A DNA stretch of 8,078 nt. Origin: a virus. Taxonomy: Duplodnaviria > Heunggongvirae > Uroviricota > Caudoviricetes. The stretch lies in the IMG/VR virus record IMGVR_UViG_2606217173_000005, one strand, 5' to 3'. This document shows positions 1 to 8,078 of this stretch, one piece after another. The notes under the pieces are model-generated. The model saw nothing but the letters and a program-made list of their open reading frames with translations, had not been told where the DNA came from and did no database searches. Made by a program: the position numbers and the translations under genes. How positions within the stretch are numbered: the stretch's first letter is position 1; each line of letters starts with the position of its first letter.

Positions 1-1026
<1,026 letters not shown>

Positions 1027-2718: not shown

Positions 2719-3399
2719 ATGGGAACTGCGACATTAATACTCGGTGAGTCTGGCACCGGAAAATCAACCAGCATGAGAAATATCAATCCAGAGGAAGCAA
2801 TACTTATAAAACCAATAGGCAAGCCGCTACCATTTAAATCAAAAGAATGGCTGGCATGGGATGCCAGAGCAAAAAAAGGAACCGTAGTTACCACTGACAA
2901 ATGGGACGTAATAGTTGCCGTAATTAAGCGTGCTCACGAATACGGGAAAAGAATCGTTATTGTTGATGACTTCCAGTATGTGATGAGCAATGAGTTTATG
3001 CGCCGTTCAGAAGAAAAGTCGTTTGATAAATTTACTGAGATAGGCCGCCACGCATGGGAGGTGATTAAGGCTGCACAGGATGCGCCTGATGACCTGAGAG
3101 TCTATTTTCTTGCGCACACCGAAGAAACACCTATGGGGCGCGTGAAAATGAAAACTATCGGCAAAATGCTGGACGAGAAAATCACTGTTGAAGGCATGTT
3201 TACTATAGTTCTTCGCACCCTTACCCGTGATGACCAGTTCTTTTTCACCACGAAAAACAACGGTGCAGACACTGTTAAATCCCCAATGGGAATGTTTGAT
3301 ACCAATGAGATTGATAACGATCTCTCTTTCGTCGATGCCACTGTTTGTGATTACTACGGCATCAATAATGTTCATCAAATTAAGGAAAACGCCGCATGA
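2719..3399 (+). CDS. Sak4-like RecA-core ATPase (phage single-strand annealing protein, AAA_24-type)
   Basis: 226 aa; N-terminal Walker A LILGESGTGKST; Walker B-like RIVIVDDFQ; size and motif order typical of phage Sak4; RBS GAGG upstream. Confidence 0.8.
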   Translation: MGTATLILGESGTGKSTSMRNINPEEAILIKPIGKPLPFKSKEWLAWDARAKKGTVVTTDKWDVIVAVIKRAHEYGKRIVIVDDFQYVMSNEFMRRSEEKSFDKFTEIGRHAWEVIKAAQDAPDDLRVYFLAHTEETPMGRVKMKTIGKMLDEKITVEGMFTIVLRTLTRDDQFFFTTKNNGADTVKSPMGMFDTNEIDNDLSFVDATVCDYYGINNVHQIKENAA

Positions 3400-3983
3400 G
3401 CAACGTGATTTTTACTTATAACGAAGAAGCAGCACTGACCGCAGGGCAAGGTGGTTTTATTAACGAAACTGGCGCTCATATAATTACCATTACTGAAGCA
3501 GAACTAAAGCAATCAGAAAAAGGCGCAAAATTTATTGAGTTTTCTGGCGAATCCGACGACGGACGTAAAATACAATATCTTAGCGTTTGTGTTCAGAAAA
3601 ATGACGGAACGGAAAATAAATTTGGCGCAAATGTCGTCCACGCCATGATGGGGTGTGTTGGGATTAAGCGGTTAACGCAACATATGGTTTCCGCCAGTAA
3701 ATTTGTTGCACCTGAATTTCATGGAAAGAAAATCGGGTTAGTGCTCCAGAAAGTATTAACCACAAACAAAAAGACTGGCGCAGACAGCTACCAGATGGAA
3801 ATACGCATCCCGTTTATTGCACAAACAGGTCAAACCCTTAAAGAAAAGTCGGAAGGCAAGCAACCAGAAACTATCGCCAACATGGCTGCCAACCTCAAAG
3901 ATAAAGACAATCGCTCTAAAAACGTAAGCCAGAATCATGCAGATGATTATGGTTACAGCCAGAACGATTACCCTCCTTTCTGA
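3396..3983 (+). CDS. Putative phage SSB-like partner of Sak4 with acidic/aromatic C-terminal tail
   Basis: 195 aa; ATGA start/stop overlap with the Sak4-like gene; C-terminus ...HADDYGYSQNDYPPF resembles the SSB C-terminal tip (DDDIPF-like); RBS AAGGA at 3382-3386. OB-fold not verified. Confidence 0.7.
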   Translation: MSNVIFTYNEEAALTAGQGGFINETGAHIITITEAELKQSEKGAKFIEFSGESDDGRKIQYLSVCVQKNDGTENKFGANVVHAMMGCVGIKRLTQHMVSASKFVAPEFHGKKIGLVLQKVLTTNKKTGADSYQMEIRIPFIAQTGQTLKEKSEGKQPETIANMAANLKDKDNRSKNVSQNHADDYGYSQNDYPPF

Positions 3984-7311: not shown

Positions 7312-7617
7312 ATGATTATGGTCTGTTCAACATTCAACCCTCTAACGTTACAGAAATACCAGCCAGACCCTGAAGATTTATGCTCACTGTGTGGCGGAAA
7401 TCATGGCAAAGCCGCCATGATCGAATGTAAGGACAAAATCCACATATGCCTTAATTGCGTTGATGTCCTCGTTGATATCAAAAATGAGAGAGAAGATAAA
7501 AAGCGTAGCGAGGCTGTTCGCGCCTTAGATTCATGGATGCGAGATGGGTATAGTGCCGCGCAAATTTATGACTTAGCCATTTCAAAAGGCGAAATACCAG
7601 GTGTGCGAATCGAATAA
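7312..7617 (+). CDS. Hypothetical protein with CxxC...C...CxxC zinc-finger-like motif (101 aa)
   Basis: ORF with Cys pattern CSLCGG...C...CLNC; weak RBS; starts directly after the tandem terminators. Confidence 0.6.
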   Translation: MIMVCSTFNPLTLQKYQPDPEDLCSLCGGNHGKAAMIECKDKIHICLNCVDVLVDIKNEREDKKRSEAVRALDSWMRDGYSAAQIYDLAISKGEIPGVRIE

Positions 7618-7652
7618 GAAGCGCACTCAAGCATCTTTTGGAGAAATCACAA

Positions 7653-7820
7653 ATGCACTTCCGAGTCACAGGAGAATGGAATGGAGAGCCATTCAACAGA
7701 GTTATCGAAGCAGAGAACATCAACGACTGCTATGCCCACTGGATGCTGTGGGCGCAGATAGCACATGCAGACGTAACCAATATTTGTATTGAAGAACTGA
7801 AAGAACACCAAGCCGCCTGA
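7653..7820 (+). CDS. Hypothetical small protein (55 aa)
   Basis: GGAG at 7640-7643 then ATG at 7653; its stop codon lies in the loop of the downstream terminator hairpin. Confidence 0.5.
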   Translation: MHFRVTGEWNGEPFNRVIEAENINDCYAHWMLWAQIAHADVTNICIEELKEHQAA

Positions 7821-7832
7821 TGGCGGTTTTTT
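7812..7832 (+). terminator. Intrinsic (rho-independent) terminator
   Basis: GC stem ccgcc (7813-7817) / ggcgg (7822-7826), 4-nt loop, then six T (7827-7832). Confidence 0.65.
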
Positions 7833-7877
7833 ATTACCTGATTTGCAGGTTCGATTCCCTATTTGGAGATAGCACTC

Positions 7878-8078
7878 ATGCAACACGAACTACAGCCTGA
7901 TTCACTGGTTGATTTGAAATTCATCATGGCCGATACTGGCTTCGGTAAAACCTTCATCTATGACCGGATTAAGTCCGGCGACCTGCCAAAAGCCAAAGTT
8001 ATCCACGGGCGAGCAAGATGGTTATATCGTGACCATTGTGAATTCAAAAATAAGCTCTTAAGCCGCGCCAATGGGTAA
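7878..8078 (+). CDS. torI: Excisionase / recombination directionality factor of the Xis-AlpA-TorI winged-helix family
   Basis: 66-aa ORF MQHELQPDSLVDLKFIMADTGFGKTFIYDRIKSGDLPKAKVIHGRARWLYRDHCEF...; the pattern F-x-Y-x-x-I-x-x-G-x-hPK-x-x-K-x-G-x-x-x-RW is typical of AlpA/Xis-type excisionases; length and sequence match my recollection of TorI of prophage KplE1 (CPS-53), not database-verified; GGAG at 7865-7868 precedes the ATG at 7878. Confidence 0.75.
   Translation: MQHELQPDSLVDLKFIMADTGFGKTFIYDRIKSGDLPKAKVIHGRARWLYRDHCEFKNKLLSRANG

Follow-up and report, generated by a model that had tools for sequence, protein, structure and literature searches.

An argW-derived segment upstream of torI in a P22-like prophage: a conserved candidate cis-acting site at the left boundary of the excision and integration module

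What is a piece of a tRNA T-arm doing directly ahead of an excisionase gene? The question is raised by a stretch of viral DNA of 8,078 nt (IMG/VR record IMGVR_UViG_2606217173_000005; hereafter, the window), which comes from a P22-like (Lederbergvirus) prophage of the Sf6/HK620/Kapi1/KplE1 type and corresponds to its early-left arm. The gene content assigned with PHROGs includes a transposase (positions 1-981, minus strand; phrog_3598, E = 2e-174), a Sak4-like annealase (2719-3396), SSB (3396-3980), and several conserved hypothetical proteins. The open reading frame of the transposase (326 aa) reaches the left edge of the window, and its position places an IS element at or inside the left part of the prophage early region. 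At the opposite end lies the excisionase gene torI (xis, for the RDF) on the plus strand at 7878..8078 (7878-8075 in the PHROGs assignment), the stop codon of which is the end of the window. Its 66-aa product is 100% identical to TorI/HkaC/Sf6 gp18, and the torI region is matched, at least in part, in over half of the complete E. coli genomes searched.

Upstream of torI, an intrinsic terminator on the plus strand (7810..7835) closes the early-left genes; it consists of a hairpin at 7810-7829, with an 8-bp stem that includes five G-C pairs, and a T-run tail. The torI start codon (ATG, 7878) is preceded by the Shine-Dalgarno (SD) sequence GGAGAT at 7865..7870 (plus strand). The gap of ∼45 nt between the terminator and this ribosome binding site is the sole non-coding interval available for a torI-proximal site, and in related phages and prophages the Int arm-type repeats, an IHF-like box, and the att core lie just past the position where the window ends.

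The initial annotation of this DNA described a 16-nt T-arm-like segment between the terminator and the excisionase gene and assigned it to an argW-type tRNA-Arg; both statements are confirmed here. The 16-mer, TTGCAGGTTCGATTCC, occupies positions 7843..7858 on the plus strand, and it is single-copy in the window even when three mismatches are permitted. It is an exact copy of nt 46-61 of the E. coli K-12 argW gene, which encodes tRNA-Arg(CCU) and in which the order is ...GGGCTAA-TTGCAGGTTCGATTCC-TGCAGGGGACACCA. In terms of tRNA structure, the copy runs from the end of the variable region through the 5' strand of the T-stem and the T-loop to the second nucleotide of the T-stem 3' strand. No exact match between argW and the window is longer than these 16 nt, which are found on the plus strand only. 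Across 500 shuffled windows, the longest argW match was 8-13 nt and never more than 13; analytically, 2.3e-4 matches of 16 nt would be expected between the two sequences. Given the exactness of the match over 16 nt, the shuffled windows, and the low expectation, the argW copy at 7843-7858 is real and not a product of chance. The similarity to host tRNA also extends past the generic 11-nt T-loop consensus in other lineages, most of which share 13 nt (CAGGTTCGATTCC) with argW.

A tRNA gene or tRNA pseudogene is rejected for this segment, as the initial annotation had already argued from the inability of the flanks to complete a T-stem. ARAGORN found no tRNA genes in the window, an Rfam search gave no tRNA match at 7843-7858, and only G52-G53/C61-C62 could pair in the window; there is neither a cloverleaf nor a complete T-arm.

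The more specific proposal, that the segment is a copy of the att core and may mark an attachment site, does not stand. In the KplE1 family, the att core is the 16-nt sequence CTGCAGGGGACACCAT (PMC2951348), and in Kapi1 it comprises the same sequence plus one base (PMC8787464). Alignment to Sf6, Kapi1, the MP1 chromosome, and K-12 places this core ∼74 nt past the torI stop, outside the window, and rules out an att-core copy at 7843-7858. In argW, the 16-mer is located immediately 5' of the core and is contiguous with it, with one C overlapping. In the phage, the two elements are arranged and oriented as in argW, but they are ∼294 nt apart, with torI and the P arm between them. Because the 16-mer is the piece of attB directly to the left of the core, separated from it in the phage by torI and the P arm, it is not a core copy; the comparison with the KplE1 att core that had been recommended thus identifies argW sequence from the 5' side of the core. 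A part in functional attR is rejected as well: the attR used for excisive recombination in vitro is 135 bp long, with primer attR-IHF2 placing its start at the final 20 nt of torI, and the 16-mer falls outside it by the published primer positions (PMC3509656). The assignment of the segment to an integration/excision module, also made in the initial annotation, is borne out, the module being that of a KplE1/Sf6/HK620-type prophage.

The relationship of the 16-mer to the core becomes more precise when the core architecture is considered. Lining up 25 modules (loci L001:3690-3725, L009, L010, L023, and L027 among them) showed that TGCAGGG is invariant in all 25, with inverted half-sites on both sides. 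In Salmonella phage g341c and in EhrS_49, GGTGTC-TGCAGGG-GACACC forms a perfect inverted repeat, and symmetric co-changes of the half-sites occur at L023 (GGCGTA/AACGCC) and L027 (GACGTC/GACGCC). On the basis of these alignments, the att core is predicted to have the classical tyrosine-recombinase layout, with TGCAGGG as a 7-bp overlap between Int core-type half-sites of 6-9 bp. The left (B) half-site of attB, (TTC)GATTCC, equals the 3' end of the 16-mer (argW nt 52-60/61, directly 5' of TGCAGGG), so that the similarity to argW ahead of torI ends just where Int is predicted to cleave the top strand. The 16-mer thus reproduces the bacterial "B" half-site side of attB. In the window, the sequence that follows is CTATTTG, and not the overlap TGCAGGG.

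A small annotated open reading frame, hkaB/gene 17, overlaps the xis stop and covers the attP core (L001:3618-3758, L006:2694-2834, L007:2694-2870, L010:2708-2851). Since it spans the attP core, it is intact in the excised phage only, and its low-complexity product may merely mirror conserved att DNA.

To what extent the segment is maintained was assessed among modules sampled with the TorI protein as the query, against phage records and against one genome per species. The unit of conservation is an inner block of 11 nt, GTTCGATTCCC, at 7849..7859 (plus strand), the last bases of which, GATTCC, are the B core-type half-site of attB. Upstream of xis, it occurs as GTTCGATTCC(C/T) in 15 diverged lineages, with unrelated flanks. 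Carriers include Sf6, HK620, KplE1, Erwinia phage Midgardsormr38, phiEt88, and Salmonella phage g341c, along with prophages of Serratia, Citrobacter, Pantoea, Edwardsiella, Enterobacter, and Phytobacter; Erwinia phage phiEt88 bears the block although its xis is only 39% identical. The distance from the block end to the xis ATG is 15-24 nt (mostly 18), and the distance from the block to the SD (GGAG) is 3-13 nt (mostly 5, as in the window). The full 16-nt argW match is confined to the E. coli lineage, and most other lineages have 11-15 nt. The argW-like 5' part (GCAGG) has diverged in most lineages, but the inner block has not.

Quantitatively, block identity across the 15 lineages (105 pairs) is 93%, compared with 53% at the third codon positions of xis at identical residues, 42% in the 11 nt on the 5' side of the block, and 39% in the 5 nt on its 3' side. 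This excess over both synonymous positions and flanks (∼40%) amounts to purifying selection on the block itself, and the inner 11 nt have been kept in this way across distant lineages. The suggestion in the initial annotation that the segment is a relic of an earlier integration is therefore retained with respect to the derivation from argW, but not with respect to the inner 11 nt, which are under selection. Furthermore, when viral contigs were scanned without bias for the block with an SD after it, the matches were essentially only tRNA genes or their 3' ends and the leaders of TorI-like genes, with no genomic context besides these two. One and the same argW core is the target in nearly all of the recovered TorI-type modules; in Pseudomonas AlpA-type relatives, the gene layout differs. 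The block is single-copy except in Midgardsormr38, in which a tandem duplicate with a 16-nt period, CAGGTTCGATTCCCGT CAGGTTCGATTCCCAC, is located directly upstream of xis (L007:2455-2490).

Conservation of the block is not universal. It is missing in Chronis, in EhrS_49, and in about half of the more distant loci. Compared with block-bearing alleles, L019 (2470-2500) and L035 (2465-2500) differ by a clean 28-nt indel with CTGG microhomology at its bounds, and a point change in the block occurs at 5 of 50 E. coli-lineage loci. In L019 and L035, the upstream terminator and ATTGCC(T/C)GG are shared with the block-bearing alleles and are directly followed by a different SD, GGAGGAAA. Because it is absent from some apparently intact modules and point-changed in others, the block is accessory and not essential.

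By its sequence, the segment copies the B side of attB from argW, and it is located at the left boundary of the xis-attP-int module, at a mosaic junction. As for its function, the explanation we favor, tentatively and as something short of probable, is an argW-derived cis-regulatory DNA site that is read by the module's own recombination proteins. The segment would have originated, probably, in an Int-made or att-related joint with argW, and the inner 11 nt, GTTCGATTCC(C), would then have been retained by selection as a cis-acting DNA site. The likeliest reader would be the core-binding domain of IntS, possibly in combination with TorI, whose core GTTCG sits in the block. The initial annotation had likewise raised an Int/Xis binding region, which is a plausible hypothesis. 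The site may serve to modulate torI expression, which seems to be the step that limits excision in the KplE1/HK620/Sf6 family, and would do so as an accessory element. The promoter PtorI has been described as non-characterised, and control of excision seems to rest on expression of the RDF (PMC2951348); it is for this reason that the role proposed here is one in torI regulation.

IntS core binding is the leading candidate because the block reproduces the B half-site. This candidate is weakened by the fact that the true phage C half-sites drift to GGTGTC/GATGTC, which suggests an Int preference for that sequence, while the block remains tRNA-like (GATTCC). The reader thus seems to need a tRNA-type sequence. 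Additional points against a site read by IntS or TorI are its single copy, compared with phased arrays, its loss by the 28-nt indel, its position outside the in vitro attR, and the point changes among the E. coli-lineage loci. A bolder version of the proposal is that a host tRNA-gene fragment, the B side of attB, has been co-opted as a putative dedicated excisionase operator, an attB-like half-site on which the integrase, alone or with the RDF, gauges its own concentration and so gates torI, and that the joint is a fossil of the unusual xis-attP-int order having been assembled at the Int cleavage point; we regard this version as speculative and rather unlikely.

If the block is a protein-binding site, TorI alone may be considered as its ligand. 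TorI would bind the GTTCG of the block and autoregulate torI, in parallel with its repression of intS at attL. The sites of TorI are 8-mers built on the experimentally defined core GTTCG (GATCG and GTCCG are tolerated), e.g., CAGTTCGC and TGGTTCGC, and TorI is a proven repressor of PintS (PMC2951348). The block contains such an 8-mer, AGGTTCGA in the window and CAGTTCGA in L043, which matches the TorI 8-mers at 6-7 of 8 positions. However, when the published site positions and sequences were mapped onto K-12, sites I1-I5 were found on attL and not at 7843-7858 (PMC2951348). C or T comes after GTTCG in 27 of 27 P'-arm sites, while every copy of the block has A there, the conserved ATTCC(C) is foreign to TorI sites, and the block lacks the phased multiplicity of the attL arrays. 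Additionally, phiEt88 keeps the block while its P' arm has no GTTCG and contains period-10 GTWAC-type repeats instead. The block is an atypical TorI site, and autoregulation by TorI through it is unlikely.

The P' arm of phiEt88 (L011:2800-2970) has the layout of the KplE1 TorI sites, with two sites, a AAAACCCC box, and three sites at a 10-nt period that abut the int -35 element. The repeat in this arm is GATGTAAC/GCGTTAC/GCGTAAA rather than GTTCG, an apparent switch in RDF specificity.

The mosaic structure of the region invites another explanation, in which the segment is a functionless relic or "boundary sequence," i.e., a scar left by an old joint with argW, whether Int-mediated or illegitimate, and owes its conservation only to recent common descent or repeated modular exchange. 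A mosaic junction does occur at this site: homology to the Stx-phage L0063 region ends at ∼7837, homology to K-12 begins ∼15 nt upstream of the 16-mer, and the feature annotated in Sf6 as "bsq2 boundary sequence" begins at the equivalent position. The segment also has the character of a mosaic boundary, a short conserved sequence between modules that differ among phages, as recorded for bsq2 in Sf6 and HK620. In support of repeated exchange, L016 and L164/L038 share a near-identical 45-nt leader (terminator tail, block, and SD) on two xis subfamilies with ∼45% protein identity, and recombination breakpoints therefore fall right at the start codon. The block-less alleles without obvious harm, and the occasional point changes in E. 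coli-lineage copies, are likewise consistent with a relic. Against this, the disparity between the block and both its adjacent sequence and the synonymous positions is not expected without selection on the block, and divergence in most lineages has affected the argW-like GCAGG but spared the inner block. A mere scar is, accordingly, an improbable account of the inner 11 nt, even as the junction itself is evident. L016, as well as L030, consists of typical enterobacterial prophage sequence in metagenome-assembled genomes labelled Actinomycetes and Parachlamydiaceae, and these taxon labels probably reflect bin contamination.

The block could also act at the level of RNA, as an element of the torI 5' leader (a T-loop mimic, an anti-SD, or a target for an sRNA or protein) that tunes the translation or stability of read-through transcripts. 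Its proximity to the SD and the ATG in all lineages is in keeping with such a role, as are the capacity of UUCC to pair with GGAG and the T-arm-like hairpins that form in Edwardsiella/P. stewartii (L023-25) and in Serratia (L017). The comparative evidence, however, is to the contrary. RNAalifold returned zero conserved pairs for the block leaders, single-sequence folding z-scores range from -0.8 to +0.2, and Rfam gave nothing significant. When position 52 is changed to A or T, the would-be partner C62 is unchanged, and 52:62 do not covary; nor is a same-strand segment complementary to the block conserved. We therefore reject an RNA T-arm mimic or SD-sequestering hairpin, with no consensus structure, z-scores of ∼0, and no 52:62 covariation, and we consider an mRNA element in the wider sense doubtful. 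Since neither a conserved RNA structure nor a conserved pairing partner was found, the evidence points towards recognition of the DNA or the primary sequence.

A further alternative derives from existing GenBank annotation. In the HK620 record, "promoter: phage integration" and "protein_bind: cII protein" are annotated directly before hkaC, and Sf6 has "pI; possible integrase expression promoter" at the equivalent position. The segment could accordingly belong to a CII-activated "pI" promoter that serves the integration module when lysogeny is established, with TTGC-N5-TTGC as the CII site, and this gap is the only intergenic room for a torI-proximal promoter. The equivalent of the HK620 cII site in the window is at 7834..7846 (plus strand), where the 16-mer begins with the second TTGC and the first half reads TTAC. 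Lambda-type CII sites have the form TTGC-N6-TTGC and straddle the -35, so the spacing differs (N5), and the first half-site is TTAC not only in this window but in K-12 and in 17 of 50 related loci. (The TTGC/TTAC polymorphism at 7834-7837 was seen among viral loci with 100%-identical TorI, L045-L124, and the K-12 copy is that of CPS-53.) The TTGC repeats are confined to the E. coli lineage, while GTTCGATTCC is conserved beyond it. A consensus scan of 7500-8078 on both strands found no sigma-70-like promoter and no -10/-35 pair. The HK620 and Sf6 features are predictions and not experimental results, and a pI transcript would encode Xis too, which would be counter-productive for integration. 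A CII-activated promoter is thus very unlikely to explain the block.

Two last candidates are readily dismissed: a translated N-terminal extension of torI through the block is precluded in the E. coli lineage by an in-frame TGA at 7839-7841 and by the lack of a start codon before the block, and a cis-antisense sRNA is rejected given that the match to Rfam STnc130 rests mostly on the terminator hairpin and does not recur in other modules, and that there is no promoter-like site on either strand of 7500-8078. The STnc130 match itself is a weak full-length one on the minus strand (7801-7928), with 26 bits compared with a gathering score of 55.

Fragments of tRNA genes at att sites are ordinary, and this region already carries the predictive GenBank features pI, cII, and bsq2. 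No mention was found in the searchable literature of an argW fragment that abuts the core, of its end at the inferred cleavage point, or of the selective conservation of a T-loop block upstream of the RDF gene across genera. The block is the sole strongly conserved non-coding element between the terminator and the torI ribosome binding site, and it is for this reason a concrete and easily mutated candidate for the control point of torI. More broadly, these observations show that a tRNA-gene fragment beyond the att site proper can be retained by selection, and they allow the crossover region (TGCAGGG) and the Int half-sites of the KplE1-type module to be predicted from sequence. For a recombination module that has been studied so well, the addition is modest, but it is real and can be tested.

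Among known systems, the lambda PI/CII promoters and the "pI" of HK620 and Sf6 resemble the segment in their position, immediately upstream of or overlapping the xis start, and in the TTGC repeats of the E. coli lineage; they differ in the N6 spacing, in a recognisable -10, in the half-site that is mutated here, and in that the repeats are not kept outside the E. coli lineage. The TorI sites I1-I5 (PMC2951348) have the GTTCG core in common with the block and agree with it at most positions of the 8-mer, but the block is single, has A after GTTCG, carries the extra conserved ATTCC(C), and persists in phiEt88. The argW pseudogene fragment pawZ, at the attR of CPS-53 in K-12, is also a short argW-derived piece in or at the edge of the same prophage. 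Unlike the 16-mer, which has no K-12 annotation, pawZ is annotated there; it is the core (the 3' end of argW) duplicated by integration, whereas the 16-mer is the adjacent upstream part of argW and not a normal integration product. The remaining comparison is with the B arm of attB/attL in the KplE1/HK620/Sf6 module, i.e., the argW T-loop beside CTGCAGGGGACACCAT. Here, the window copy differs in that no overlap or core follows it, the real core being ∼294 nt away, beyond torI; it is alike in sequence (16 nt identical in the window, and 11-15 nt elsewhere), in its orientation relative to the core, and in its end at the inferred boundary between the B half-site and the overlap.
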